Assembly (NCBI RefSeq): GCF_004010195.1
Contig: NC_057749.1
Coordinates: forward strand, 7,213,416 to 7,277,415
Length of the DNA: 64,000 nucleotides
Source of the DNA: Chiloscyllium plagiosum
Taxonomy: Eukaryota
Direction of reading: 5' to 3'
Made by a program: the position numbers and the translations under genes. The notes under the pieces are model-generated. The model made no database searches and was not told the origin of the DNA. It was given only the letters and a program-made list of their open reading frames with translations. This document shows, in pieces, positions 4,944 to 58,268 of this stretch; within the stretch, counting starts at the first letter, position 1; each line of letters starts with the position of its first letter.

Positions 4944-5172
4944 AGGAGAAAGTGAGGACTGCAGATGCTGGAGATCAGAGTCGAGAGTGTGGTGCTGGAA
5001 AAGCACAGCAGGTCAGGCAGCATCTGAGGAAACTGTGGTGCTGGAAAAGCACAGCAGATCAGGGAGCATCCGACGAGAGTGTGGTGCTGGAAAAGCACAT
5101 GAGATCAGGGAGCATCCCAGGAGAGTGTGGTGCTGCCTGACCTGCTGTACTTTCCAGCACCACACTCTCGAC
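4944..5172. mobile_element. Rearranged PLE terminal repeat: three tandem ~45-nt copies, then fold-back
   Basis: gtgtggtgctggaaaagcaca...cag(g)cagcatc repeated three times, then inverted copy; flanked by tacattaac (4935-4943, 5173-5181). Confidence 0.8.
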
Positions 5173-5181
5173 TACATTAAC

Positions 5182-6015
5182 TCACATCACCAGACCATAG
5201 CAACACGACGGCTGGAGGAAGAGCGCCTCATCTTCCGACTAGGAACCCTCCAACCACAAGGGATGAACTCAGATTTCTCCAGTTTCCTCATTTCCCCTCC
5301 CCACAGCTTGTCTCAGTCAAATCCCTCGAACTCAGCACCGCCTTCCTAACCTGCAATCTTCTTCCTGACCTCTCCGCCTCCGCCCCCACCCCCACTCCGG
5401 CCTATCACNNNNNNNNNNNNNNNNNNNNNNNNNNNNNNNNNNNNNNNNNNNNNNNNNNNNNNNNNNNNNNNNNNNNNNNNNNNNNNNNNNNNNNNNNNNN
5501 NNNNNNNNNNNNNNNNNNNNNNNNNNNNNNNNNNNNNNNNNNNNNNNNNNNNNNNNNNNNNNNNNNNNNNNNNNNNNNNNNNNNNNNNNNNNNNNNNNNN
5601 NNNNNNNNNNNNNNNNNNNNNNNNNNNNNNNNNNNNNNNNNNNNNNNNNNNNNNNNNNNNNNNNNNNNNNNNNNNNNNNNNNNNNNNNNNNNNNNNNNNN
5701 NNNNNNNNNNNNNNNNNNNNNNNNNNNNNNNNNNNNNNNNNNNNNNNNNNNNNNNNNNNNNNNNNNNNNNNNNNNNNNNNNNNNNNNNNNNNNNNNNNNN
5801 NNNNNNNNNNNNNNNNNNNNNNNNGCCCCTCCCCCAAGTCCCTCTTTCCTACCTTTTATCTTAGCCTGCTGGACACACTTTCCTCATTCCTGAAGAAGGG
5901 CTCATGCCCGAAACGTTGATTCTCCTGCTCCTTGGATGCTGCCTGACCTGCTGCGCTTTTCCAGCAACACATTTTCAGCTCTTGATCTCCATCATCTGCA
6001 GTCCTCACTTTCTCC
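5182..6015 (+). mobile_element. 5'-truncated Penelope-like element spanning the assembly gap
   Basis: Peptide TRRLEEERLIFRLGTLQPQGMNSDFSSF (GIY-YIG C-terminus); hammerhead motif 5890-5917; ends ctgcagtcctcactttctcc followed by tacattaac. Confidence 0.85.
5409..5824. other. Assembly gap
   Basis: Run of N. Confidence 1.
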
Positions 6016-6454
6016 TACATTAACCAACAGCCAAGTAATGCCAGTCAAAGGAGGCAACTGGAATTTTCCACTGGGCCTTCAGCCTCCTGCAGGAGCTGGG
6101 GAGGCTGGTGATGATGGTGGTGGTGATGCTGGGTCAAGTTTATTTGCCTGGAAATGGCCCCGTTCATGCAGCAGACTGGAGTGAACAGCTCAAGCCAGAT
6201 CTGGAGACCCTTCTTGGCTTCCCTGGGCATTACATGAGTCACAGGCTACCCTGCAGAGGAGGCCCTGTTAATCACTTATCTTCCTCACACAACAATGGCT
6301 GCAAACATGGCAACTCATCTCCTATTCTCAATATTAAAAAGTTGCAGAGAGGGTACCCACATTTTAAAACCACCCTTGACTGCCATCACTCTCCTCCTTT
6401 CAAGCCTTTGACTGGCCTTTTCCAGCTGAGTCCATCCACCATCCTTACTGAACG

Positions 6455-11439: not shown

Positions 11440-11797
11440 ATGAGGAGGTAGACAAGGTCAGAAATCACATGACACTTGGTTTTGGTCCAACAGGTTTATT
11501 TGAAATCACAAGCTTTCGGAGCTGAATTTAGGTATGTAAACTGTCACAATGCAGCGCAATTTAATGGCCATTAAATGGCTCAATTAATTGAGCCCGACCA
11601 ATTCCCTTGTCATCTGCTATCTATTTATCTCCCTGCACAAAGGCACAGCTCGCTTGGTAATACAAAACGTGAGTTTTGCTATCAGAGTGTGCTATCAAAG
11701 GTTTATGCCCTGCATTCATCAGGACAAAGGGGCGAAAGGTTGTGATTTCAAACAAACCTGTTGGACTACAACCTGGTGTTGTGTGACTTTTGATTTT
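11440..11797. mobile_element. Fold-back PLE insertion enclosing a copy of local DNA
   Basis: Inverted arms ~11453-11518 and 11733-11797 of the family seen at 17.1k, 50.3k and 63.3k; centre 11522-11727 duplicates 12872-13078. Confidence 0.85.
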
Positions 11798-13039
11798 GGA
11801 TCTGTGTTCGACCAGAAACCCTAGGTCTCACTCCAACAGATTACAAGCACATCACTTGCCTATTCCTTGCGTTGCAAGGTGTGAGCGAAGAAGAACATTC
11901 TATTAGCCAGCATTTATATTATTCCGTTTATTAGTTTAGCTCGAATAGCGAGGGCTGATGGCATGATCAGCAGACGCAGTTCAGGAAAAAAAAGTGATCG
12001 AAACTGATGGAGCAACTGAAGAGAAATTAACATGCAGAGTGGAAATGATACAATTGCTCGAGTAGTATGGGGTTAATGAGTCTATCTGCCGATGTTAATT
12101 CGGGGCCCTTGCACTGCCAGTCTCAGTAATTCCTCAAAGCCAGCCTGTCTGATGATACTGTCAGGTCGTGGAGGCAAAAACACAAACCTACACATCTGTA
12201 TAGGTACGGTTGATAAGCAACGGAATCACACTGCAAAAAAAAAGGTCATTAATTACAATTTTTCTTATTCCAAGCAAGCCTGATATTAAATGTCTTTATT
12301 TAAACAATTGTAATTAGTGTACTCATTACTGCATTAATATTAATAGGAGTGCTAATACTGCATGCGTCCTACTCCGCTATCTCTCGAATCTTTTGATAGC
12401 AACCAGAACTTCCAAATTACTGGAAAGGTGTCTATTTCCCGCCCTGAATTCCTAGGTGTGCGTTTGTAATGCAAGCTGCCTAAGTAGGTTTGTCATTCTG
12501 TAATTGCAGCTTACCCCTCAAGAGGAGGGGCTCCATCCACACCGCTGACAGCCAGGTCTAATTAAAGCCGGGCAGGTTTGCAGAGGCAATGCTTCCATTA
12601 TAACTAGGGGACAGAGGCATTTGGAAGGTAGATCAGAAAACAAGAGGGGAATGTGTAATGTTAAAATGGGAGCCAAATTACTTCTGGTTTTACTATCCAT
12701 GAGCTTCTAATGTGAAGGCAACACTTTATCGTGAAACCCATGTGCAATGTCAAAGAAGAACAAGCAGATTATCAAAAATTCTGACGTACATGCAATTGCT
12801 TTCCACAGACCTTATTCCTGTTACGCTTTCAGTTAACACATACCATTGCAAATTGCTGTCAAAATTTCCCACTGAATTTAGCTATGTACACTGTCACAAT
12901 GCAGTGCAATTTATGGTCACTAAATGGCTCGATTAATTGAGCCCCAAACAACTCCCTTGTCATCTGCTATCTATTTATCGCCCTGCACAAAGACACAGCT
13001 CGCTTGGCAATACAAAACTTGAGTTTTGCCATCAAAGAG

Positions 13040-13300
13040 TATGTTATCAAACGTTTGTACCCTGCGTTCATCAGGACAGAAATACCAACTTTCAAAGGGA
13101 GTAACAATTTATATGCGTGAGCCTCAGGTGTTGATTGAATGGCAAGTTTACTCTGTTCAAGACAGTACCAGAAAACTATTGACCTCCATACTTTATATCA
13201 ATTCAAAACAAAGCACAATGCCTGGACGTGTTTTTTTTCTGCTTGTAAAGGAGAGGTCACTGCATTTGGTTATATGTAGCTTGTGGTAAGACTAAGTGAG
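13040..13300 (-). mobile_element. Old Penelope-like fragment
   Basis: ttcatcaggaca...tttcaaagggagtaacaatttata, homologous to 120-205 and 51935-52130. Confidence 0.55.
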
Positions 13301-21612: not shown

Positions 21613-22713
21613 CCATGGCAAAAATGAAGTGGAGGGCAAGTTTAACTTTTACATGAGTATTACTTTTGAAGGGCTGTGCTGAATACCACAGGGCCTGTCT
21701 GTCTGGGGTTATCCATTGATATTTCTCACGCTTAAATGCGAAAAGAACATTTGTGCAAATAAAAGACTGACTGGACTATTTCTGGTTTCAAAACTAGCTC
21801 AAGGTAGATGAAAAATGAGGGACTTTTGTTCTAAAAATCAAGGATCAACTTATAAAGGGGGTGGGAGGGGCCAGAAGTCAGAGTTTGTCCCGCACATTAG
21901 ATTGACTATTGCTCCAGTATGTCTTACCACAGGCAACTAGCAAGTCTGGAATTAAAAACCTGTCTCAGAGATCGTGACCATGAGGAAATATGTGAACCTT
22001 ACTTGGTCTGGCCGACATATGAGTCTGGACCCACAGCAATGTGATTGATTCTAAAACAACCACACTGTAAAGGGCAGTAGAACAGGTTACAAATGTTTGG
22101 CCATGTTTGCATTGCATTAGAGAATAACAGACAAAAAAAAGAACTCAATGAATGAGCACTTACTGATCTTCAGGAAAGAGAATTCCAAAGATTCACAAGC
22201 CCTTGAGTGAAGAAATGTCTCTTTGTATCAGTTTAAATCACTGGCTTCTTTAATTAAGCCTATGCACTCTAATGTGTGGACTCTCCGAAAATTGTATTAG
22301 TTTGAATGCAAACATACATACGAACCATTAAGCTAGGAGCAAATGTAGGCCTTGCTGAGTAGGTCTGCCATTCAAAAATTACATGGCTGATCTCATTGCA
22401 TTTGGAATTTCACATTCCAAACAAATACCAATTTTGATTAGACTCTCCTGTCTTCCAGCAACCTATCTAACTCTACCTTAAAAATATTCAATGATCCCAC
22501 CAGCACTGCCTTCTGTGGAAGGGTGTGTTGCACTATCCTCCCAGGGTTAAAACTTCTCATCCCTGAATTAAATGAGCGTAGCCTAATTTTGAATAAGAAT
22601 CATCTCTAATTTTCCTAAATACTGGAGAATGTTAACATTTTGTTTTGGAGCAGTGAGGGGGCTTATTATAACTACTACTCGATATAGTTGCCACAGAGTG
22701 CATAGTTATTAGG

Positions 22714-23484: not shown

Positions 23485-24120
23485 ACACAAAAACAGGACA
23501 AGACCATTTGGCCCATCAAGATTCCTCTCCCATTCAATATGATCGTGGTTGTTTGTGAGCTGCAACACCAGTTTTTCACCGATTCTCCATTCCCTTGACT
23601 CCCGTGAAAGACTAAAAATAATCTGTCTGTCCTAGCCTCCAAATGGCTGATGTTTAACAATTGATCAACCACAACACTGTGAGATGGAGAATTGCAAAGA
23701 TTCACAATGCTTTGAGTGAAGGAATTTCTCTTTATCTTAGTTGTAAATGATCATTGCCTTTACCTAAATTTTAACCCCCACCTGACTTAGATTTCCCAAT
23801 CACCAGGGGAAAAATAATCTCTCTGTCTCAATCCTGTCAAGCCCCTTCCAAGTCTTGGATGAGATTCCGCCTGATTCCTCTAAGTTCTACAGAACATTGC
23901 CCCAACTTATCCAACCTCTCACCATGGGACAACCTCCTCATCCCATGGACTAAGTGAGTCTTTGCTGTCCTATCTCCAATGTGGGTATATCCTTCCTTAA
24001 ATATGGAGCTGAAGACTGCATGTAGAGCTCCAGATGTGGTCACACATCAATGCCATATACAATTGAAGAAAGACTTCTTTATACCTGCATTCCAATTTGC
24101 TTGTGATAATGGCCAACATT
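23485..24120 (-). mobile_element. Old CR1 LINE fragment
   Basis: Minus peptide MRRLSHGERLDKLGQCSVELRGIRRNLI. Confidence 0.75.
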
Positions 24121-26074
24121 ACACAACAAAGGTCAACATGCGAGATGAGAAGTTAAACTGAGGTTCCTCAGCCCTCTCAGAATGAAGTCAGGTGTCCCAT
24201 AATACTCTTTGAAGAAGAGGAGAGGAATTTTCTTTCTGGTGTGCAGGTCAATGACCAACCTTCCACCAACATTGCATAGAAAAAGGACAATCTCATTTGG
24301 TGGGTCAGACAATGAGATGTTGCAAACCTATTGTCTCTGCAATGCAATAGTGACTACCCCTCAAAAGGTATTTAATTGGCTGCAAAGAAATTTGGCATGA
24401 TGAAACTTGACTTCAGTGCTACAATATGATATCCTTTTATTCATTCACTTGTCGGATGGTAAATGCGGGGTTACAGAGGTAGGGTAGAGGCTGGGTCTGG
24501 GTCGGATGCTCTTCGGAGGGTCATTGCAGAATCAATGCACCGATTAGTCTTTTTCCGCACTGTAGGGATTCTACAATGGGGGTGTCACTGGCTGGGCCAG
24601 CATTTATTGTCTGTCTCCACTTGCCCTTGAGAAGGTGATCATGAGCTGCCTTATGGAACCGCTGCAGTCCATGTGTCAGACTCTTGGTACTCTCTAAATT
24701 AATCTGACAAGCCATTTAGTTAAGATGAGCATTAAAAGCAGTTAAGCTAAGAAGTATAAAAACTATAGTTGTTTAACCATTAAATCAAGGGGTTCATTGA
24801 AACGAAAGGTTAAGAACTCCATTTGAAAGCAGATATTGACATTATGTTTCACAATTCCAGCTGAAATGTGTTTTATATTAGTGAATCAAACCAAATCATT
24901 ATTAAACCTTCACTACTAGCAACATAATAACATGTGAATAAACCCATCTTGGTTAGAGGTTCATATCTTCCCCTGGGGTGAGATCCCAGTAAGGGAGTCA
25001 ATGTCATCAGAAAAACAGAAGGGGAATTTGAAAGACATCTATCATCAGGTTTCTATTTGAGCGGGTCAGTATTGACAACCGTTATTCTAGATGTGACAAA
25101 ACTTTTGATCAATGGGTATCATTAGTGAACTTCAATGTAAAGTTGATTCATCAATCAGCTAATGGGTAAACCATTGGGTCATCATTGATTACTTAACATT
25201 GCTTGAAGGTTCATCTTGTGTTCAGGGTGGAAGGTCAGAGAGGGGGCTACTGGAGGGGGAATATGAGAAGAAACGGAGTTGGGAGAGAGAATACAGAATG
25301 AAGTAAAACCACAATGAAAAAAGAGCTGTTCCACTGAGCTGACAGGTAAACAGAAGCGCAAAGTCTTGTGTCCCTTCAACATCATTAATTGATCATGACA
25401 CAGCAGCAAAAGACGGGGCAGCTATCTAAATCTGCTGGTGCATTCAGTGTCTCACAGAAGAAGAAAAATGAGGTCTTCGAAGACATTAAAGGCTGGTATC
25501 ATTCTCGTGTTGACACCAAGCTGTGTTTGAATCTTGTATGTTCCTTTTAAATGTTCAGAGAAGTCGATTTCAAAAGAGTATGATTCCTTTAATGAGCTGT
25601 GGCAGGTGCAAGCAATGTCACCAAAGCACAAGATTTAGTCATTGTTTTATTATTGGGATCTTGCTCTCTGCAAACTGGCTGCAGAGATAGAGGGAAAGGG
25701 TGAGTAATGGTATTGTGAAAGAGCTGGCACTCATTCAGTGGGCTGAATGGCCTTCCTCTGTGCTGTAATTTTCTAAGATTCTATCTTTCCAAGGGCAGCT
25801 ACACCTTGTTATCATAGCATCCCTACAGTATGAAAGCAAGCTATTCAGCCCCTTCAAAGACCATCCAACCTAAACCCAACCCCCTGCCCATAGACCTACA
25901 ACCCCGTATTTCCTTTGACCAATACACCTAGCCTGCGCAACCCTCAACAGCATGGGGCAATTTACAATCATTGAAGTATTCAGCGTGGAAACAGACACTT
26001 TGCTCCAATTCGTCCATGCCAACTAAGTTATGAACTACCCTCTATCCTTAGTAGTAGTGTAATTTGACTGGGAA

Positions 26075-26500
26075 ACCCACTTCCTGATCCCCCGAAGCCC
26101 ACCCACCACCTCCAAGGCACAAGTCAGAAATACAATGGAATATTCTCCAATATCCTGGATGAGTGCAGCTCCACACCATCCAGGACAGAGCAACCTGCTT
26201 GATTGGTATCTGATTGACATTCACCCTCTTCACCACCAACACAGTACCTTGGTGTGCACCATTTACATGATGGACTGTAACAATTGACTGAGGTTCCTCT
26301 GACAGCACAAAGGCATGGTACATGGGAACGCCACCAACTGCAAACTCCCCTCCAAGCCACATGCTATCTTGATTTGAAAACATAAGACCATTCCTTCAGC
26401 ATTGCTGGGTCAAATTCCTACCCCTGACAGCATTGTGGGCATAGTTTCACCATAATGAATGCAGCAGTTCAGGAAGACCAGGCATATGCATGTGGGGATA
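26075..26500 (+). mobile_element. CR1/L2-group LINE 3' fragment
   Basis: Homologous to 44310-44825 (caaggcacaagtcag...tggaata...ggatgagtgcagctcca). Confidence 0.7.
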
Positions 26501-26514
26501 AAGTCTTCACAGAT

Positions 26515-26674
26515 CCAAAGATGTGCAGGTCAGGTGAATTGGTCATGCTAAATTGTCCATAGTGTTAGGTGCATTAGTCAGAGGGAAATGGGTCTGGGTG
26601 GGTTACTTTTCGGAGGGTAGGTGTGGACTTGTTGGGCTGAAGGACCTGTTTCCACACTGCAGGGAATCTAATCT
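26515..26674 (+). mobile_element. HE1 SINE 3' half
   Basis: Matches 22855-23014. Confidence 0.85.
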
Positions 26675-26724
26675 CAGAACTAAAGGTAAAGCTTAAAGAT
26701 CAACCAACAAAATAGATAGAAGTC

Positions 26725-26936
26725 CTGAGGAAGGGTCCTGACCCGAAACGTTGACCCTGCATCCTTAGTCATAGAGTAATTTCACTGGGAAACCCACTTC
26801 CTGACTCCCCAAAGCCCACCCACCACCTACAATGCACACGTTTCCTGGTCCTCCAATGCTGTCTGACCTGCTGTGCTTTTTCCAACTCTACATTTTATCG
26901 CTTCTGACTTTCAGCATCTGCAGACTTTACTATTTC
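26725..26936 (+). mobile_element. PLE terminal fragment with hammerhead and captured local DNA
   Basis: CTGAGGA-a-GGGTC-ct-GACCC-GAAAC-GTT; 26754-26841 copies 26037-26124; TSD caaaatagatagaagtc/caaaatagctaggagtc. Confidence 0.85.
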
Positions 26937-27848
26937 CAAAATAGCTAGGAGTCGCTTTCTTGAAATAAAGTCATAAACACCTTTACAAAATACTACACAC
27001 AATTAAACCTCAGGCACTGAAGGTGAAGTGAATAACAACCACACAAAATCTGTTTGCTTGAGGACTGCTATCAGAAGCTCCCTAGTCCATCTAACCTGCA
27101 CATCTTCAGATTGTGGGAAGAAACTGGAGCAGACAGACATGAGGAGAATGTGCAAACTCTACAAAGGGAGTGGCTGACGGTGGACTCAAACTGGGGTTCC
27201 TGGCACTGTCAGGCAGCAGTGCTAACCAGTATTTGGATCCTTTGAATGGAAACTTTGGCCACCAGCAGGAGACTTAGATTCTATGCATTATCCAAAATAA
27301 TCTGACAGTTGCAACCATTTTACCATGCAAATTCCACATTTCTTTTCTGACCGCACTAATATCACTAGGGTGGGGAAAATGGAAAATACATCCATCCATT
27401 GTTCATTGGAATCTTGGAAAGGTGGTTCCCACCCTGTTTTGAGAAAGAAAAATCGCATTGCCAAGTTAAATCTGACAGATGACAGGAAAAGTGTTGATGT
27501 CGATCAATACACCTTTGAAGTTAGCGATGTCTAGGAGTCAACCAGGGGACATCATACATATAAGCTTGGCCCAAATCCAAACCATAAGCCTAGCAATGTG
27601 GAATATGCAGAATCTATACAGTGTACAAGTATAGTTTTCTTGGTTAGTGAACGTATTGTACAATGGCTTAAGGCTCTCATATACCACATACCTTGCATGC
27701 TATTTTTAAGCAGGAGTTAACATTTATTTAAAATAAGCTCAAATGTCAAGATCCAAAAATACCATCTCAGATCATTAAAGCTAAGCAACTTTATCATGTT
27801 TTACTGGTCTTCACTTGTTTGGACAAACCTGACACTTTATGTTACCAG

Positions 27849-27983
27849 GCTCATTCCTGATGAAGGGCTTATGCCCGAAACGTCGACTCTCCTGCTCCTT
27901 GGATGCTGCCTGATCTGCTGTGCTTTTCCAGCATTACACTCTTCGACTCTGATCTCCAGCATCTGCAGCCCCCACTTTCTCCT
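27849..27983 (+). mobile_element. Young PLE terminal fragment
   Basis: Exact 15-bp TSD actttatgttaccag (27834-27848, 27984-27998). Confidence 0.9.
27857..27884 (+). ncRNA. Minimal hammerhead ribozyme motif
   Basis: CTGATGA-a-GGGC-ttat-GCCC-GAAAC-GTC, canonical core and GUC triplet. Confidence 0.8.
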
Positions 27984-28321
27984 ACTTTATGTTACCAGTG
28001 GTGTGCCTGATAACATTATGACAATCACTGTTTCTGTATGCTGGCAGAAGTCTTCAAATTCTAGCTGAGTTCTTTCTGCAGTCAAATACAGTGTCTAGGA
28101 ATTAAGCTAATGAGCAAGTAAACTCCCACATGAAGGAAGAACAGGAGGGGCTGTGATGAAGGCCTACTGGCTATGTTGGCACCAAAGGGTTAGGTCCACT
28201 ATCCTGGCAGGGATGTGAATTGATCAGCGTTGGAAAAGAAGATAAGCAAAAAAAAAACCGTTGAGCCTCTGCAACAAAACTTTTAGTCAAAATGTAGCTG
28301 GTCAGGTTTTACATGTGGCAT

Positions 28322-28604: not shown

Positions 28605-30042
28605 CCAAGGCCCGTATTTCAGACAGATTGAAGTCTTCCCTCTCCCATTACCTTGCTATCGTAGGGTCTGCAGGTCAAAGACTGTCCCTGCTAACCCCAT
28701 CCCTAAATGTAGCACCAAAAGGACCAAAACTATGTTTAATAATGCAGTATGCTATGGGTCAATCAACTCGGTTTGTACCAGGGTAAGTTTGACTTCAAAG
28801 GCAAGCGGGTGGTCCATACAAAGTGTTCAGACTTTTGGGGCAAATGTTGGGGGTTGATCTATGAATGAGCTGTTTATGTAAAATGATTGATTTTTGTCCA
28901 AAAGTCATGGGTCAACTCTAACTTGAAATTGTCCACTATTCGATTATGGCACAGTATTGCAGTCCAGTCTTCAATGTATTCCCTCTTCCCAGAATTGGAG
29001 AGACATTAAACAAAGATCTTCTGCCCTCTCAAATGGACCTGAAGAATCCTATGATGTTATTTTGAAAACGAGCAAGGGATTAATCCCCTGGTGTCCTAGC
29101 CAATCATCATTTATTGATCAACTTGAAATGAGGGTTTCGTCATTGCTTTCTATGGGACCTTGCTGTGGGCAAGTTGGTTGCTACATTTCTTCTATTCGCT
29201 CGACTTCATTTATTGCAAAGCACCTGAGGCATTGAATGTTGCTGTTTAATAATACTTTAGTTCTATTCCTCTAATTCCTTGCTGGAAAAGGGATGAGATA
29301 AAACATCCTGCTGATATCATCATAAATCTGTGGGGGCAAGAGCGAATACAAGAGCTACAAAATCAAGTGGGGAGGGAATAAACCCTCTCACCAATGCTCT
29401 TGTGGAATTGAGGCATGTTTATAAAATCGATTTGCTGTGCCGAATAAAATCCAGCCACTTCCAAAATGGCTACTCAGAACTGAGTGGGGTGGAGTGGGGT
29501 GGGGGTCATCTCTGTGCGTGCTGCTCCACAAACTCAGGCTGTTCTCCAGCTGCAGTGCTGCCCTTTTCATGTAACCTCACACGTTATCTTGTGCAGAAAA
29601 GGTCTCTGCACTTTCAATCAGGCTCCCAGTGGAGAGGCGCCCGCAGCATTGAACCAGGCTAATTGGTGCCAATCTCGTTTGAGCTGAGAGGCCATGAATA
29701 TTATATGCATATGAGAAAGAGATGTCACATTAACGCAACACAGGAGGGTTCCTTCAGAGGTTACAGCTCGGCAAAGGCACCCTTGTCAGCATTTTGTACA
29801 AAAGCCATACAGTGCCTGTACTACATTCGACCAGGTCACACGGCGCCTTGGGAAAGTTCCTACTGGTTAAATGCCTCTCATTATGAATACATTTTTCATC
29901 ATTTCACTCCTCCATTCTCGTCAAGAGGATGCCAAGCTGAAAGGTAACTTGGGTCGACAGCTTGGTTCCTTTATTTTGCCGCAATCATTTAATTCCTGAT
30001 TGTTTCAAAACAGCTCTCCACCATTTCAATCAAGATGTACAG

Positions 30043-30956: not shown

Positions 30957-31116
30957 TTGAAACAAAATCAGAATTTGCTGGAAAAGCTCAGCAGGCCTGG
31001 TAGCATCTGTGAAGAGAAATCAGAGTTAACATTTTGGATGCAAAACGTTAATTCTGATTTCTCTTCACACATGCTGCCAGACCTGCTGAGCTTTTCCAGC
31101 AACTTCTGTTTTTGTG
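30957..31116. mobile_element. Fold-back PLE insertion
   Basis: ~75-bp inverted arms meeting at ttttggatgcaaaa, at the ribozyme GAAA/stem II position. Confidence 0.8.
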
Positions 31117-44309: not shown

Positions 44310-44825
44310 CCTGCCCACCATCTGCAAGGCACAAATCAGGAGTGGTATGGAATACTCCCTACCTGCTTGGATGAGTGCAGCCCCAGCCACACTCAAGAAG
44401 CTCAACACCATCCAGGATGAAGCAGCCCATTTGATTGATACCACATCCACTCCCTCCGCCAATGATGTTCAGCAGCACCAGTGTGTCCAACTCACATGAT
44501 GCACTGCAGAAATTCACAAAAAGCCCTTTGAGAGTAGCTTCCAAACCCACAACCACTACAATCGAGAAGGAGAAGCAAATAAACAAGAACAAGATCACCT
44601 GCAAGTTCCCCTCCAGGGCACTCACCATACTGACTTGGAAATTTCCCACTGTTCCTTCAGGGGTGCTGGATCAAAATCCTGGAATTCTGTCCCTAACAGC
44701 ATTGTGGGTAAACCACAGGGACTGCAACGAGATTATGAATGCAGCTCACCACCACCTTCTCAAGGGTATCTAAGGGCAGGCAATAAATGTTGGCCCAGCC
44801 AGTGACATCCACAGGGAATAAAAAA
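44310..44825 (+). mobile_element. CR1/L2-group LINE 3' fragment
   Basis: TICKAQIRSGMEYSLPAWMSAAPATLKKLNTIQDEAA; tail caataaatgttggcccagccag. Confidence 0.8.
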
Positions 44826-50376: not shown

Positions 50377-52699
50377 AGAAAGACAGACAATGAGGGCATC
50401 CAAACCTGCTTGGAAAGGTTCTAACTGGGAGGTCATCTCCAGGTCACAGACCTAGCTGCTCTTTGTTTTAATATGCTTGCATCAACTTATTCAATGATGT
50501 CATTGCACACCTCTGGAGGAAGTGGGACTTGAAGCTAGGTTGTCAGTTCTAGAGACAGAAACAGAGACACTATCCCTGCACAATTGACCCAGCCCTCACC
50601 AGTTTGGCAAATTCCAGTCAGCCTTTGGCAATAGTCCTCAAACAGCCATTAAACATACTTAATTGGCTACTCACGGCTGGTGGATAGGTAGCCCTGCACC
50701 TTATCCCTTCACAGCAGATCTCCAAGAAAATAACACGAGGGTGGGATGGTATTGGCAAACTATCAATGTGCATCTGCTTAGAATTCCACCAAACAGTCTC
50801 TGTACTCAGCCCCATTAGCACCTAAACATCAGCCCTAAGTTGTTCCATCCTTCAGTCGAGCATCAGCATCAAGTGATTTAAATCAATTGAGAAATCAATT
50901 ACTGCCTCAGAAAAACATGCTCCCTCAAAGGAACATCTCCATCAATCAAAATCCCATTATGCAATGTTGATTTTATCGCTGAATATTAAAGTACATATTC
51001 TTTAGATTTTCCTTAAGCTGATCTTCTGAGTCTGATTAAACAACAACTAATTGAGTCCAATATTATGGCGATAAGATGCTGATGGAGAGTATAAAAGAGT
51101 AGCAACATTAACCGTGAAGCAGCAGAAAGCAATCTTCTTTGTCAGTCTTCCCCATGGGAGAAGGTCACTTATCACAGTACACAAAGTAAAGCTTCACTAT
51201 CAGCCTTGAGTATCTCACCTTAGTAATGCGAAAGACAGGATTAACTTCCATGTATGTCATGGCTTGGCAGGTTGGTAGCAATCTCACCTTGGAACCAGCA
51301 AGCTCTGTCCTGTGTGACGATTCGCACCTACAATTTGGAGGTTACATCATTCAGCAGCAGACATGAAACCAACCTGCCCACTTGCTCTGGCATAGACCAA
51401 GTGGCACAATGCAAGAAACACCACCAGGAATGCGTCAATAATATCTTCTCAAAGTTAACAAAGTCAGGCTCATCTGTCATTTGCCTGACTAGTCTTTGTG
51501 AAATTCTGCTAAACACAATGTGGCTGCCACTTTTTTCAACCTGACTCTTCAAATTCATCCATTGTTTGTGAAGTGTTAGGTGAATTGATGATGCTAAATT
51601 GCCCACCGTGTTCAGGGATGTGTAGAGTAATACAATAAGGGAGTGGGTCTCGGTGGGATACTCTTTGGAGGGTTAGTGTGGACTTGTTGGGCCAGTGTGG
51701 ACTTGTTGGGCTAAATGGCCTGTTTCCACACATCTATGATACTTTTAGATGTTTCTAAGTGCAGAAGTGTGACATTGTTGCAAGTCCATTTTTCCAAAAC
51801 TGTTGTTTTAACTAGATCCATGAGTTCAATGATATATAAATTGTCGAAGGTAACTCAAAGTTAAACATTAATTTCACAGGTTGACCAAACCAAATTTCTT
51901 GGTGGTTCAGAACTTGAATATTGATGAAAAAAGAGAGATACTTTTGAAGCTTTTTATCTTGTGCTCATCAGGATACATGTAAAGATACCAAATTTCAAAG
52001 TGAGCAATAATTTTAATGCATGAGCAAAAACTTGCTGATTGGTTGGCAGGTCAACTCCATTTGGTCAAGGTGTTGTTATGAAGAATGTACCGGGCAACTC
52101 CAGTCCCCTAAGCTTTGTTTAATTCAATGAAAGGAATTAATGCCTTTTTTCAGCCTAACCCTAACCCTGTATTTTTGAAAAGCTTACAATAGGCTGTTTC
52201 TGGCAGCAAGATGCTTTGACATCACACTTGGCATTTCTAATTCAATACACAAGATGTAACCGCGTGGCATTTTGCAAGAATATGAAAGCTTGAAACGGCC
52301 CTGAAATAGTTCATACCCTTCCACCCAAATGGCCAATTCAGTCTAAATCCACATAATACCAACAGCAAGTAAGTGCATTCAAAACAGAATTTCAAGAGTC
52401 AGTAGGCTTTATAAGGTATGTAAAATATTGATGTAAAAAATTCTGACAACCGAGGCGCTGAAGGGAAAATGAAAGAACAATAAAACCGCAGATTTTATTT
52501 AGAAGATGCACAACCAAAGTAAATCAATGAGGTGTCACATCTTATATCTGAAGAAAGCTCTGAAATAAGAGAATTGTGGCTGGAGGTTTCTGAGGGACAT
52601 GTTAGTTCATGTACCCCATGGCTTTATAATAGTACAAAAAATGATGGCCTCTGACTGTTCCTGCTTTGTTGGGCAAGGTGGACCTCATCCTACTGGAAA

Positions 52700-52869
52700 C
52701 AAAAAAATGCTGGAAAGCACAGTGGGTCAGGCAGCATCCATGGAAAGACAGCTCATGTTTTGAGTCCAGATGACTCTTCATCAGATGTGATGTGGAGTGT
52801 GGAGGGAGCAGCATTTATGCAATAGTGGAGGGCTGGGGAGAAAGACTTTGTCTTATCATCTGCATCAAG
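52700..52869 (-). mobile_element. PLE terminal fragment
   Basis: Reverse CTGATGAagagtcatctggactc motif; TSD ctactggaaa. Confidence 0.7.
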
Positions 52870-53584
52870 CTACTGGAAAATAACAGGTAGTTACACTGGT
52901 AATTATTCACTAAACATCAGCAGAAAATGGGCAACACGTGAAAATGCTCATGCCCCATGAGGAATTTACCCATTATCATTTCTCAATATGGATAATCAGG
53001 AATCTCATTACTTACGTGCATGTGTTGGCAAGATACGGGAAGAAGCATGCCCTTGCTGAAATTACGACTGTTAAACAAAAAGTTAGCAACACGTTATTGA
53101 ACATCGGCTGTATACTGCAAACAGCCTCAAAGTCCTGTGCTGGAGAATGAGAAGTTGGCTAGTGCTCCAAACATGCATGCAAGACACTTTGAGGTGCAAA
53201 TGCTTACTCAAAACATATTTCATGTTCAAATGGCCCAGCTAACATCCATGATCTAAAAGCAACAACAACTTGTACTCCATAGTCTCTTTAATAGGCTATT
53301 AAACACCCTGAAGACTCCCAGGGTGTTTCACGTGAGCACAGTCCAACAATGTTTGACAATGAGATGATAGCATAGTGATATTGTCATAGCTGCTTGTAAG
53401 CCAAAGATCCAAGCTGTTGCTAGTAGAAACAAAAAACAGTCTCAGCAATGACAACAATGACCAATTGTTGCAAGAACCCATCCGGTTCACTAATGTCCTC
53501 TTGAGAAGGAAATCTGCCATCCTTACCTGGTCTGGCCTCCATGTGATTCCAGATGCATAACAACGTACTAGACCCTTAACCCCT

Positions 53585-54295
53585 AGATGTAGGTTTGCTC
53601 GCTGAGCTGGGAGATTCATTTTCAGATGTTTCATCACCATACTAGGTAATTTTCGCAAGGTTTGTGAAGGTTTGCAGCTCAGATTGAGGTTTAGGGTGTA
53701 GGTTTGCTTGCTAAGCTAGCCAGGTAATGAAACGTCTGGATATCAAACCTACAGCTCAGTGAGCAACCTACACCTGATACTAGGTAATATCTTCAGTGAG
53801 CCTCCGGCTGAAGCAGTGGTGGTGAAGCCCGCTTTCTATTTATATGTTTGGGTTTTCTCGGGTCGGTGATGTCATTTCCTTTGGTGGTGTCATTTCCGAT
53901 TGTGATGTCACTTCCGGTTCTTTTTCTTGGGGGTGGTAAATGGGATCCAAGTCAATGTATTTGTTGATAGAGTTCCTGTTGGAATGCCATGCTTCTAGGA
54001 ATTTTCATGCATGTCTCTGGCTCGTCCTAGGATGGATGAGTTGTCCCAGTCAAAGTGGTATCCTTTCTCATCCGTATGTAAGGATACTAGTGAGGGTGGG
54101 TCATGTCTTTTTGTGGCTAGTTGATGTTCATGTATCCTGCTGGCTGGTTTTCTGCCCGTTTGTCCGATGTAGTGTTTGTCACAGTTCTTGCAAAGTATTT
54201 TGTAAATGACATTAGTTTTGCTTGTTGTCTGTATTGGGTCTTTCAAGTTCATTAGCTGCTGTTTTAGTATGTTGGTGGGTTTGTGGGCTATCATA
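53585..54295 (-). mobile_element. Penelope/Poseidon-type retroelement 3' part (GIY-YIG endonuclease pseudogene)
   Basis: NVIYKILCKNCDKHYIGQTGRKPASRIHEH; TSD cttaacccct (53575-53584, 54299-54308); inserted in a family C SINE. Confidence 0.92.
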
Positions 54296-54527
54296 ACTCT
54301 TAACCCCTTTCTGAAATGGTCCAAGCAACCATTAAGTTCAAGAGCAATTGGAGGTCGGCAGGAATTGCTGAGCTGGCCAGAAGCACCCACAACCAGTGAG
54401 ATCATAAAGAAAAAAGAAACATTAGGAGCTATTGAGGCAGGTGATAAAAAGCTTGGTCAAGGAGGAAGATATAAGGAGTAACGTAAAGACTGAAAATCAC
54501 TTGTTTCCAAGACAGTGCGTAACAATC

Positions 54528-54750
54528 ATAGAATCATTCAATCCCTACAATGTGGAAACAGGCCCTTCAGCCCAACAAGTCCACACCAATCCTCCGAAGA
54601 GCAACCCACCCAGACCGACACCCGCACCCCACTATCCTATACTTGCCCCTGAATAATACACCTAAGCTACACATCCCTGGACACTATGAGCAATTTAGCA
54701 TGACCAATTCACCTAACCTGCACATCTTTGGACTGTGGGAGGAAACCAGA
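54528..54750 (-). mobile_element. HE1 SINE 3' part
   Basis: Matches other HE1 copies. Confidence 0.8.
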
Positions 54751-54876
54751 GCTCTGGTTCTTCTCAAGAAAATTTCACAATGGAACAAGCTGCTAAAGGA
54801 TATAGTCACAGTTCCACTTGAAATCTTCAAGACTCACTTTTTGATTATTTTATTAGTATTTCCTTTATCAAGTTAG

Positions 54877-55100
54877 GAGTCAGCTAGCTCGGTTGGCTGG
54901 ATGGTTGGTTTATAATGCAATGTGATACCAATAGCGTGAGTCCAGTTCCTGCACCGGCTGAGGTTACCATGAAGGATTCTTTTTTCTAAACGTCTCCCCC
55001 CACCTGAGGCATGGTGACTGTCAGGTTTAAACCACTACCAGTCACCTCTCTGAATAAGAGAGCTGCTCCATGATTTGGTAAGACTATGGTGACTTTAACT
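54877..55100 (+). mobile_element. Family B SINE, uninterrupted copy
   Basis: tagctcggttggctgg head through ggtaagactatggtgacttta tail. Confidence 0.75.
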
Positions 55101-55236
55101 TATCAGAACTACTACATCAGCAGGTTGAAATCCTTAGTTTTAACTTTTCAACAACCCTAATTCCACCAACACCATACTTTCTCCAATGTCCATCCAAAAT
55201 AGGAAGATAAGGAGGTGGTTTATGAGGTTAACTAGT

Positions 55237-55445
55237 GATTAGATTAGATTAGATTGCTTACAGTGTGGAAACAGGTCCTTCGGCCCAACAAGTCCACATC
55301 GACCCTCTGAAGAGTAACCCACCCAGACCCATTTCCCTCTGACTAATGCACCTAATACTATGGGCAATTTAGCATGGCCAATTCACCCGACCTGTACATC
55401 TTTGTGACTGTGTGAGGAAACCAGAGCACCCTGAGGAAATCCACA
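55237..55445 (-). mobile_element. HE1 SINE 3' part
   Basis: (gatta)n tail and core. Confidence 0.85.
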
Positions 55446-55605
55446 ATACTCCATAGTATTTGACACAGCTGACAGAGTCAAAGTCCTTAATGAGGTTAAG
55501 GAAGACTAGGTTTCGATATTGCTGCTGCTCTGGGCATTTTTCTTGGACTTGCTCAGTTGTAAAGGTCATGGTCACTGTGTATCTTGATGGGAAGAAGTGA
55601 CTCAG
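55446..55605 (-). mobile_element. RTE/BovB-like LINE RT fragment
   Basis: TVTMTFTTEQVQEKCPEQQQYRNLVFLNLIKDFDSVS resembles the RTE RT motif QLQEKCREQ...FIDLTKAFDSV. Confidence 0.65.
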
Positions 55606-55609
55606 GAGT

Positions 55610-56350
55610 TCACCAACACCGCTCCCACCCCCACCCCTCACCTCCATCCAAGGCCCCAAAAGAGCACTCCACATCCATCAGAGATTTACCAACACTTCCA
55701 CACACATCATCTATTATAACCGTTGCTCCCGATGTGGTCTCCTCTACATTGGAGAGACAGGATGCCTACTTGCGGAACATTTCAGAGAACATCTTTGGGA
55801 CACATGCACTAAACAACCCCACTGCCCCGTGGCCGAACACTTTAACTGCCCCTCCACTCCGCCAAGGACATGCAGGTCCTGTGCCTCCTCCACCGCCAAA
55901 CCCTTACCACCTGATGCCTGGAGGAAGAACACCTCATCTTCCACCTTGGGAATCTCCAGCCACATGGGATCAATGTGGATTTCCCCAGTTTCCTCATTTC
56001 CCCTCCCACCACCTTATCCCAGATCAAACCTTCCAACTTGGCAATGCCCTCTCGATCTGTCCTACCTACCCATCTTCCTTCCCAACTAACCGTTCCACCC
56101 TCCTCTCTGACCTATCAACTTCACCCCCAATGTCACCTACCTATTGCATTCCCAGCTACCTTCCCCCCAGCCCCACTTCCCTCCCATTTATCTCTCAGTC
56201 CCCTTGGGCCACCCCCTCATTCCTGATGAAGAGCTTACGCTTGAAACATCAATTCTCCTGCTTCCTCGGATGCTGCCTGACCAGCTGTGCTTTTCCAGCA
56301 CCACACTCTTCGACTCTGATCTCCAGCATCTGCAGTCCTCACTTTCTCCC
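55610..56350 (+). mobile_element. Penelope-like element 3' part (GIY-YIG pseudogene plus terminal repeat)
   Basis: Frame reading IYYNRCSRCGLLYIGETGCLLAEHFREH...PVAEHFN; hammerhead remnant at ~56223-56250. Confidence 0.9.
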
Positions 56351-56369
56351 TGTCCTGATCAGCTGAGCA

Positions 56370-56716
56370 GATGGAGAGGTGATGACCTCGTGGTCTAACC
56401 ACTGGACTATTAATCCAAAGACCCAGCAAATGTTCTGGGATCCTGGGTTTGAATCTGCCATGGTAGATCATAGAATTTGATTTCAATACAAATCTGGAAT
56501 TAAGGATCTAACCATGACTGTTGTTGATTGTTGAGAAAAACCTAACTGTTCCAGTCATGTCTTTTAGGAAAAAAAAACTGCCATCCTTACCCAGTCTAGC
56601 CTACATATGACTCCAGACTCACAGCAATGTGGTTGACTCTTAACTGATTTCTGGCCAATTAGGGATGGGCAATAAATGCTGGCCTGGCCAGTGATGCACT
56701 CAACCCATGAATGAAC
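56370..56716 (+). mobile_element. Family C (DeuSINE-like) SINE
   Basis: tRNA-like head, ctgccatccttacc...gactccagac core, caataaatgctggcc tail. Confidence 0.75.
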
Positions 56717-58103
56717 AATACAAAAAAAGATGGGAACCTCAAGAAAGCAATGCGACCCTCTGTTGAACATACAAATGAGGCTGAACGTCTATCCCAGGCA
56801 GCTGACAGCAACTCTGAACATCTGCACAACCTGCAGGAGGGTCAGATATCTACTCGGAGGACCCTCGCCCACCCTAGTCTGCACCAATTTCATGCAGAGA
56901 AACTTCAAACAGAAGGCATTCGAGGAAAAGAAAGCTTTACACATCGTTACCCTCTCAGCAAGCTCTTCACCTTTGAAGTAGACGAGAATTTATTAACTAC
57001 TAGGAACTTCCATTGGGCCCATATGACTGCGCTCTCTCCTTATTTCATGCAGTGTCAATCATTGCCTGTCTAACTTCAAGAGCTGCGAGTTAACAGCACT
57101 GTCTCTGACCTGATCTGACAGCAGGGAGATTTATTTTTAAAAATCCACTGAATGCACCTGACCATTATACTATATTTTGAGATCATTCTGTCTAGTGCTG
57201 GTGCTTCTGGGTAGATGTTTTTCTTTTATTCTTTGTGTTGTTTGCTTGGCTTTCCCGTGGAATTTTGCTATCAGTTCAGAGAAGGGACTTTGGACCTTAT
57301 CCATATGGATATATGATATAAACAGCATACAGGCAGGAGTACTGAAAACAAGAGAAGATCTCCAGCCAGACAGATTCTTCAGCACTCCCAGAGTGTGTTG
57401 GGGTGTTTAAATGAGCAACTAACTTTCATTAAACCAGTGCTCCAAGAAACTCACTCAGCACTGACTTCTCTACTTAAGTATGTACAGAGAAGCAGTAGGT
57501 GTTGGAGGAAGAAGAAAATTGTTCTGACTATCTTCTCAGAGGCTTGAAATTCTGCAGCTCTTGATGTTGCATATTCTTTTGTGCGTTGGTCCTAAGTTTG
57601 CTGGAAAATAAAGGCAACTCCATGCGCATTCCATTATTATTGTGTATAATTGGCCAGTTTATTCAGGCATAGGAGGGATATGTCATTTGTTTGTGCATTG
57701 CTATATCTTGCTGAATGACTTATACCATTTCCAGTTCGTAACTCAATGAATACAACAAGGCATGATCTATGCTACTTAGGCACAGAGACTAAGAGGTCCC
57801 AGTTAGATACCTGGTTTGTTTTAAGTTATTGGACTCAGGAAAGAAATGTTGTTTGCTTTTATGTAAAAGCTTTCATGATTGCAAGATGCGCCAAAGTGCT
57901 TTACAACTAATGAGCTGCAGTCCTGAAATGCATTGACTGTTGTAGGAACCATCGAGGCTAACTTATACACAGAAAGATCCCATAAAACAACTGTTTTGAT
58001 CCAGTCGTGAACCGTTAGCTTTTTAAAAATATTCAACACTTTGTTTTAATGAATAGAGCTAAAACACAATATTTCACTTCTTCATAAAAAAAATTGTAAA
58101 TAA

Positions 58104-58268
58104 AAGATAATGTTCATTAGAATTCAATTGCACTTAAATTACAGATGGCTTGTGCTTCTGCTTTCAGCTGTGGGAATCCTTTGTGATACCTATAGAGCTC
58201 TTCAGACAAATGCAATCAGTTCATCCACAATACAGTGATTACTTTACAATAATTTATTGAAAGTAACT
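58104..58268 (-). repeat. Inverted local duplicate of 59674-59834, flanked by a 13-bp direct repeat
   Basis: About 90% identity over ~160 bp by manual alignment; aaattgtaaataa at 58091-58103 and 58269-58281. Confidence 0.9.

Follow-up and report, generated by a model that had tools for sequence, protein, structure and literature searches.

A locally copied insert beside the predicted hammerhead cut of a Penelope-like element copy in Chiloscyllium plagiosum

All canonical Penelope-like elements (PLEs) carry a hammerhead ribozyme. In a 64,000-nt stretch of the Chiloscyllium plagiosum genome (contig NC_057749.1, positions 7,213,416 to 7,277,415 of the forward strand; hereafter the window, numbered from its first letter), one PLE copy is interrupted, next to the predicted hammerhead cut, by sequence that also occurs a short distance upstream of the element. 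The locus raises the question of how non-element sequence from beside the target came to stand inside the element, and whether the ribozyme had a part in it. An earlier reading of the same letters, referred to here as the original prediction, held that the reverse transcriptase (RT) came to the 5' end of an RNA that had cleaved itself, moved to local sequence and from there to the other cleavage product. Our analysis shows that the element is continuous across the predicted cut on the left side of the insert, which does not fit two cleavage products. The insert is very probably a template-switch copy of local sequence, and our tentative preference is for a copy made while the element integrated.

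The sequences at 26037-26124 and 26754-26841 form an 88-nt direct repeat, in which 76 of 88 positions are identical (in-window BLAST, E 6e-26). No third full copy of this 88-mer was found in the window, in agreement with the claim that an 88-bp upstream piece had been copied into the PLE. Source and insert share the same (+) orientation, the source lying 717 nt upstream, and the distance from template to insert is 630-717 bp. Homology to the source reaches 26754 on the left and 26841 on the right. Because two nucleotides on the left and one on the right are common to the element, the net insert comprises 85 nt and not 88, namely 26756-26840 (+), copied from 26039-26123; the extent first given holds for the repeat but not for the insert. 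Exactly these 85 nt are skipped by paralogue contigs (4 in run X1, 5 in X5 and 6 in X9), and the joint of 26755 to 26841 is also present in 4 raw reads of run X19, which consists of roughly 1.9 Gb of reads from the same species as the window. Sister copies run through this point as had been described: none of the eight others aligned is interrupted there (alignment A1), and in all nine other hammerhead-bearing copies found by motif scan in the window the NUH triplet (H being any base but G) is directly continuous with element sequence. A second capture beside the hammerhead cut was seen in none of these nine copies.

In the source, low-copy sequence makes up the first 37 nt or so (26037-26073) and an interspersed repeat the remaining 51 nt or so. 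Raw read depth of the repeat family ends at about 26074-77 in the source, where 260 reads cover 26094, 47 cover 26077 and about 12 per strand class fall in the bin 26024-26060. In the insert it ends at about 26791-94, dropping from 393 reads at 26794 to 17 at 26790. All 17 of these carry the family letter T, none the A of the focal insert and the source, and they end at this point. These boundaries mark the 88-mer as a locus-specific join of the two parts. Within the repeat part, source and insert both have C at four sites (26077/26794, 26100/26817, 26102/26819 and 26109/26826) at which T is the letter of 85-94% of family reads. Private changes also occur in each of the two where its partner keeps the family letter, at 26094 in the source and at 26833 and 26839 in the insert.

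These data bear on the view that no local copying took place, and that the 88-mer instead belongs to a multi-copy repeat or PLE subfamily or is an artefact of assembly. The right-hand 51 nt do belong to a repeat with hundreds of read-equivalents, as this view would require, but the left 37 nt show no such family depth, and the four minority letters are shared by source and insert. The left part is also not significantly similar to the upstream part of the sole longer copy of the repeat in the window, the alignment scores being reached by 30/500 and 205/500 shuffles. For the same reason a 38-nt deletion within the repeat common to source and insert, a candidate from alignment A2, was rejected. 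The junctions are spanned by independent contigs, namely X1 record 7, which differs nowhere, X1 record 8, with 2 differences, and, in other organisms, X9 record 24 and X5 record 15. Together with the locus-specific join and the shared minority letters, these contigs argue that the insert is neither an assembly artefact nor a multi-copy composite, an explanation that we regard as scarcely credible. The local origin of the insert is accordingly well founded on sequence identity, the drop in depth and the common minority letters.

The repeat to which the right-hand part of the source belongs (26075-26439, +) is an interspersed fragment with a decayed open reading frame (ORF), colinear at 26102-26173 with 44314-44385 and at 26335-26439 with 44596-44708. 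It shows weak protein-level matches and a depth of several hundred reads. Since it runs on past the copied piece, 26037-26124 was marked as the original of the two copies. The piece had been said to span the 5' truncation junction of a fragment of a long interspersed nuclear element (LINE). The locus-specific join holds and is placed by depth at about 26074-77, but the LINE name, which we take over as an assumption from that reading and from a likeness to a LINE ORF2 C-terminal motif, was left unconfirmed by protein-database searches, in which the open frames of the source repeat had no match.

The insert lies within a PLE unit at 26725-26936, a 5'-truncated copy of a unit of about 135 nt that recurs in the window. 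The left part of this unit (26725-26755, +) contains the CUGAGGA core, helix II, GAAAC, the GUU triplet and element positions +1 to +3 after the predicted cut, and the right part (26841-26936, +), matched by nhmmer to profile positions 40-133 (E 1.2e-13), holds the element from +4 through its 3' end. The unit is bounded by 26708-26724 and 26937-26953, which match at 15 of 17 positions, and the reported 17-bp target-site duplication with two mismatches is thereby recovered. Apart from its insert, the copy is a 127-nt, 5'-truncated terminal unit of a hammerhead-bearing PLE, inserted by target-primed reverse transcription with a 17-nt target-site duplication. An uninterrupted sister unit of 135 nt follows at 27849-27983 (+), with its own 15-nt target-site duplication (27834-27848 / 27984-27998).

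The opening of the unit was compared with the descriptor for the minimal type I hammerhead of PLEs (Cervera and de la Pena 2014), as given in PMC8557442 and PMC4209133. The unit opens with a hammerhead-like CUGANGA, followed by helix II, GAAAC and then G-U-H. The order CUGANGA, GAAA, UH is present in 10 window copies including the focal one (motif scan, alignment A3). The focal core reads CUGAGGA ... GAAAC-GUU, in which position 7 is free and U at H17 is permitted by the descriptor. Across these 10 related copies, helix II, of 4-6 bp in the minimal form, is paired in 92.5% of 40 cells and shows compensatory changes at two of its four pairs (three copies have U-A in place of C-G, and one has A-U in place of G-C); as high an overall covariation score was attained by 2/500 shuffles, for an alignment of only 10 related sequences. 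Helix I is paired in 70% of cells, with a change from C-G to U-A at pair 1.1-2.1 in 2 copies and with 7 of 10 copies lacking pair 1.3-2.3. Truncation has removed the 5' strand of helix I from the focal DNA copy. A bulged base precedes helix II, and helix III is not real, being represented only by a palindromic ACGU. As far as sequence can tell, this layout fits the minimal, dimer-dependent PLE hammerheads described in PMC4209133. No part of the window reached the gathering score of an Rfam hammerhead model, and in 26600-28100 no match appeared even at E up to 10; minimal hammerheads that lack helix III are expected to go undetected by such models. The 3' end of the unit lies 99 nt past the predicted cut. 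According to PMC11167929, RT on an Anolis element starts at 111-118 nt of the ORF, and 26 nt separate the start codon from the cut; subtraction of these values puts the Anolis 3' end at about 85-92 nt past the cut, near the 99 nt of the window units.

At the focal junctions the sequence reads GUU (26750-26752), G-A-C (26753-26755), the 85-nt insert and then TTTCCTG (from 26841). The uninterrupted family reads GUH, G-A-T/C, T-T-T-C-C-T-G, and reads pass straight through from GAT into TTTCCTG; in run X19, 8,548 raw reads aligned rightwards from 26841 extend leftwards as ...GAAACGTCGAT. Microhomology between source and element amounts to AC at the left junction and T at the right (1-2 nt each), and the element lost 0-1 nt at the insert, one T being lost if the C at 26755 is source-derived. 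A nearby template identical by descent, microhomology at both junctions and preserved flanks, the features by which templated insertions are recognised, are all present. The insert had been placed 1-3 nt 3' of the predicted GUU cleavage triplet, which is confirmed. A random position would fall so near the cut with a chance of 7/126 (~5.6%, about 1-in-18), and the 3' edge of helix I falls at the switch point. Element positions +1 to +2 or +3 lie to the left of the insert, joined to GUU, and those from +4 onward lie to its right. Both halves of the PLE copy therefore come from one continuous template, and two ribozyme cleavage products do not fit.

The same junctions bear directly on the original explanation, in which RT, having run to the 5' end of an RNA cleaved by the hammerhead, passed to local sequence and then to the other cleavage product. 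It drew on the short distance of 1-3 nt between the insert and the predicted scissile bond, and gains from the conservation of the hammerhead core and of helix II with its compensatory changes; RTs of group II introns and of elements lacking long terminal repeats (non-LTR) are, moreover, described as able, at a 5' end, to continue on another template and to add untemplated bases (10.1101/792986, PMC8857657). A cut between U(26752) and G(26753), however, puts G-A-T to the right of the insert, whereas these positions are observed on its left and the right half begins at +4. Cleaved ends could produce the observed arrangement only through a shortfall of 3-4 nt, one untemplated G and a chance match of G/A/T to the element (~1/64), all together. 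According to PMC4209133, minimal PLE hammerheads cleave poorly in vitro, and only as dimers. For the Anolis element, Frangieh et al. 2024 (PMC11167929) report that hammerhead cleavage is dispensable for insertion in vitro, and that no RNA-seq reads end at the cut. With +1 to +3 on the wrong side of the insert and the element resuming at +4, a switch between the ends of a self-cleaved RNA was not borne out and we consider it very unlikely.

The reading that we prefer, with a probability of roughly 0.45, is a microhomology-guided template-switch detour during the element's own integration, not later. Minus-strand synthesis on the PLE RNA would have begun at the RNA 3' end and reached +4, where the outermost helix I pair of the hammerhead lies. 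There the cDNA 3' end may have detached and annealed by 1-2 bases to a local nucleic acid of + sense, for which the candidates are the top strand upstream in the broken target, once resected or unwound, and a nascent local RNA. After extension by 85 nt on this template, the cDNA would have re-annealed via AC to the same, uncleaved PLE RNA, and synthesis would then have crossed the GUU site and gone on to the 5' truncation point. Ribozyme cleavage would be unnecessary in such a course, and a folded hammerhead would at most be a pause site. We favour integration as the setting because the insert lies inside a duplication-bounded unit, because the divergence between insert and source (12/88) matches that between the target-site duplications (2/17), because template-switch scars are frequent among PLEs of the window (3 of 16 loci) and because the switch point lies at the 3' edge of helix I. 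The agreement of 12/88 with 2/17 is too imprecise to separate an integration-time event from a later one.

A DNA event after integration is a near-equal rival and in its own right quite possible, as both settings leave the same scar. A break or stalled fork in the resident PLE would have been repaired by synthesis-dependent microhomology-mediated end joining (SD-MMEJ) or by a switch of the type seen in break-induced replication mediated by microhomology (MMBIR). A 3' end would have paired with the resected partner strand 0.7 kb upstream, been extended there by 85 nt and then annealed again, now to the opposite end of the break. Templated insertions as described by Yu and McVey 2010 (PMC2943611) and in PMC8421209 bear this signature: the template is local, each junction shows 1-2 nt of microhomology and the flanks are intact. 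Osia et al. 2021 (PMC8421209) report microhomologies of mostly 2-12 bp and nearby templates. If the two PLE halves were the ends of a single break, their exact complementarity would follow naturally. The window contains four further pairs of local, low-copy repeats within 5 kb, so that local copying may be common, although these pairs may belong to unrecognised repeat families. The templated insertions described in PMC8421209 are, on the other hand, mostly short and from within ~100 bp, compared with 85 nt from 630-717 bp here, and a DNA event offers no explanation for a break within 3 nt of the hammerhead cut, a closeness expected by chance at the rate given above.

Several points weigh against an integration-time detour. 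It is a single case, and its proximity to the cut has the same chance of 7/126. Resumption at exactly the following template base is expected more readily of the two ends of a broken DNA than of an RT that has come off its RNA. Helix I, at whose edge the polymerase may have paused, is weak, with 70% of cells paired and usually three of four pairs formed, and a single-stranded or transcribed state of the local region is putative, an assumption of the reading. Finally, the sequence holds nothing that times the insert relative to integration, as orthologous loci are already composite and no insert-free allele was seen.

The composite is present at the orthologous locus of two related organisms, represented by X5 record 15 (left junction) and by X9 record 24 (both junctions); the second of these, organism C, also carries the source (X9 record 17). 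The event hence predates the divergence of these organisms. Neither an allele nor an ortholog without the insert was seen among the contigs and reads examined. The joints that skip the 85 nt were considered as empty alleles and rejected, since their short side measures at most 33 nt and contains the element part only, which identifies them as paralogues.

Polymerases that change template are known from several settings. Complex PLE insertions, comprising partial tandems, inverted 5'-truncated copies and 'tail' extensions (as described in PMC8557442 and PMC11167929), resemble the focal copy in that a PLE is involved and the polymerase changes template during integration. They differ in that the second template is another stretch of PLE, whereas here it is non-element sequence near the target, followed by a return to the same register. 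Chimeric retrocopies made by LINE RT, such as U6/L1 and other L1 chimeras (PMC4476161, 10.1101/2025.02.02.635956), likewise combine foreign sequence and a retroelement inside one target-site duplication. In the chimeras described there, an abundant cellular RNA is attached at the 5' end by one switch, while the focal piece is internal, required two switches and came from the insertion locus. Insertions by SD-MMEJ, polymerase theta end joining or MMBIR (PMC2943611, PMC8421209) share the local template, the microhomology at both junctions and the preserved flanks, but as reported are usually shorter, with templates within ~100 bp, and have no link to retroelements; sequence alone cannot tell such repair insertions from a copy made by RT. 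In R2 elements, the one well-studied case of its kind, a self-cleaving ribozyme resembling that of hepatitis delta virus (HDV) sets the RNA 5' end that is reached by RT (PMC3774820, PMC3414825), which is the logic of the original prediction. The junction in R2 is the cut itself, whereas the focal junction lies 2-3 nt away from it and element sequence runs across the cut without interruption. Our literature search returned no report of locally templated inserts in PLE copies, nor of inserts that cluster at the hammerhead. Template switching by polymerases is a known kind of event, and the focal insert adds an example from a type of element for which it had not been noted.

A more specific idea is that the hammerhead, folded or transiently cleaved and held, is a hot spot at which an integrating PLE RT loses its template. 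We consider this doubtful. If it were true, the cDNA end would sample upstream DNA of the broken target or nascent RNA, local fillers would cluster within a few bases of the NUH site, and the focal copy would be the first in vivo footprint of a PLE hammerhead acting in retrotransposition. The role of this ribozyme is called unclear in PMC8557442, and PMC11167929 describes it as dispensable in vitro. Read depth at 26838-26874 is ~10,000 per strand class, which points to tens of thousands of PLE unit copies in the genome. So many short, duplication-bounded copies amount to a natural experiment, in which a pile-up of inserts at the cut would implicate the ribozyme region in reverse transcription. 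The single focal copy does not show such a pile-up, and its junctions show a template that is continuous across the cut. It does offer a precise signature, a clean local filler at +3/+4. Should inserts not be clustered, an ordinary templated insertion landed by chance in a repeat.

The assignment of the units to PLEs is well supported by their architecture and weakly by protein evidence in the window. A unit profile built from four full copies matched 22 pieces at E<0.01, which correspond to 16 loci. Variable 5' truncation, target-site duplications (~10-17 nt at 4 window copies) and tandem or inverted compound insertions are PLE traits that the units display. Pfam searches on 30 ORFs of the window gave a weak GIY-YIG domain as the sole match. 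This decayed remnant at 53998-54456 (-) scores 20.3 bits (E 6.9e-4), below the Pfam cut-off of 22.6, and its translation has a CxxC between GIY and YIG; two cysteines at this place are given as a feature of endonuclease-positive (EN+) PLEs in PMC8557442. No RT domain was found in 52600-57999, that is, around and upstream of the remnant. A hammerhead unit at 52789-52706 lies on the same strand ~1.2 kb downstream of it, a link to the 135-nt units that is positional only.

The three PLE loci counted above as rearranged by profile search are PLE-on-PLE arrangements. The minus-strand compound at 4945-5171 contains profile positions ~47-95 three times head to tail (5123-5075, 5076-5029 and 5030-4945), the last tandem piece continuing to the 3' end, and in addition an inverted piece at 5129-5171; it looks like the product of repeated template jumps or of slippage between two fixed points of the unit. 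A head-to-head inverted pair spans 1107-1375, with arms that reach 5' of the hammerhead and meet near 1259. Another spans 30975-31103; near 31036-31042 lie the starts of both its arms, ~8 nt upstream of the cut. At ~5400-5815 a run of N (the window has 416 N) immediately precedes the PLE copy 5883-6016. It is a gap in the assembly at a compound PLE locus, a problem of the kind noted in PMC8557442.

Regarding the four other local repeat pairs, two are direct, 11522-11726 / 12872-13078 (208 nt, 88.5%) and 22178-22238 / 23687-23748 (62 nt, 84%), and one of the inverted pairs is 58104-58264 / 59834-59674 (161 nt, 90%). These three have only two window copies each, 1.1-1.4 kb apart; for each the candidates are a duplication of local sequence, the terminal repeats of an unrecognised element and membership of a repeat family. 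The fourth, an inverted pair of 70 nt with 93% identity (29109-29178 / 30537-30468), was considered as a second capture and rejected, as one of its copies is separated by ~40 nt from the 5' target-site duplication that bounds the PLE copy 30428-30334 and lies outside that insertion. It resembles a common repeat. Between the source and the focal PLE copy stands a 5'-truncated repeat of very high copy number at 26508-26677 (+; depth 8,500-42,000 per strand class), which resembles a short interspersed nuclear element (SINE), has an AATCT-type tail and is represented by at least seven further copies in the window.

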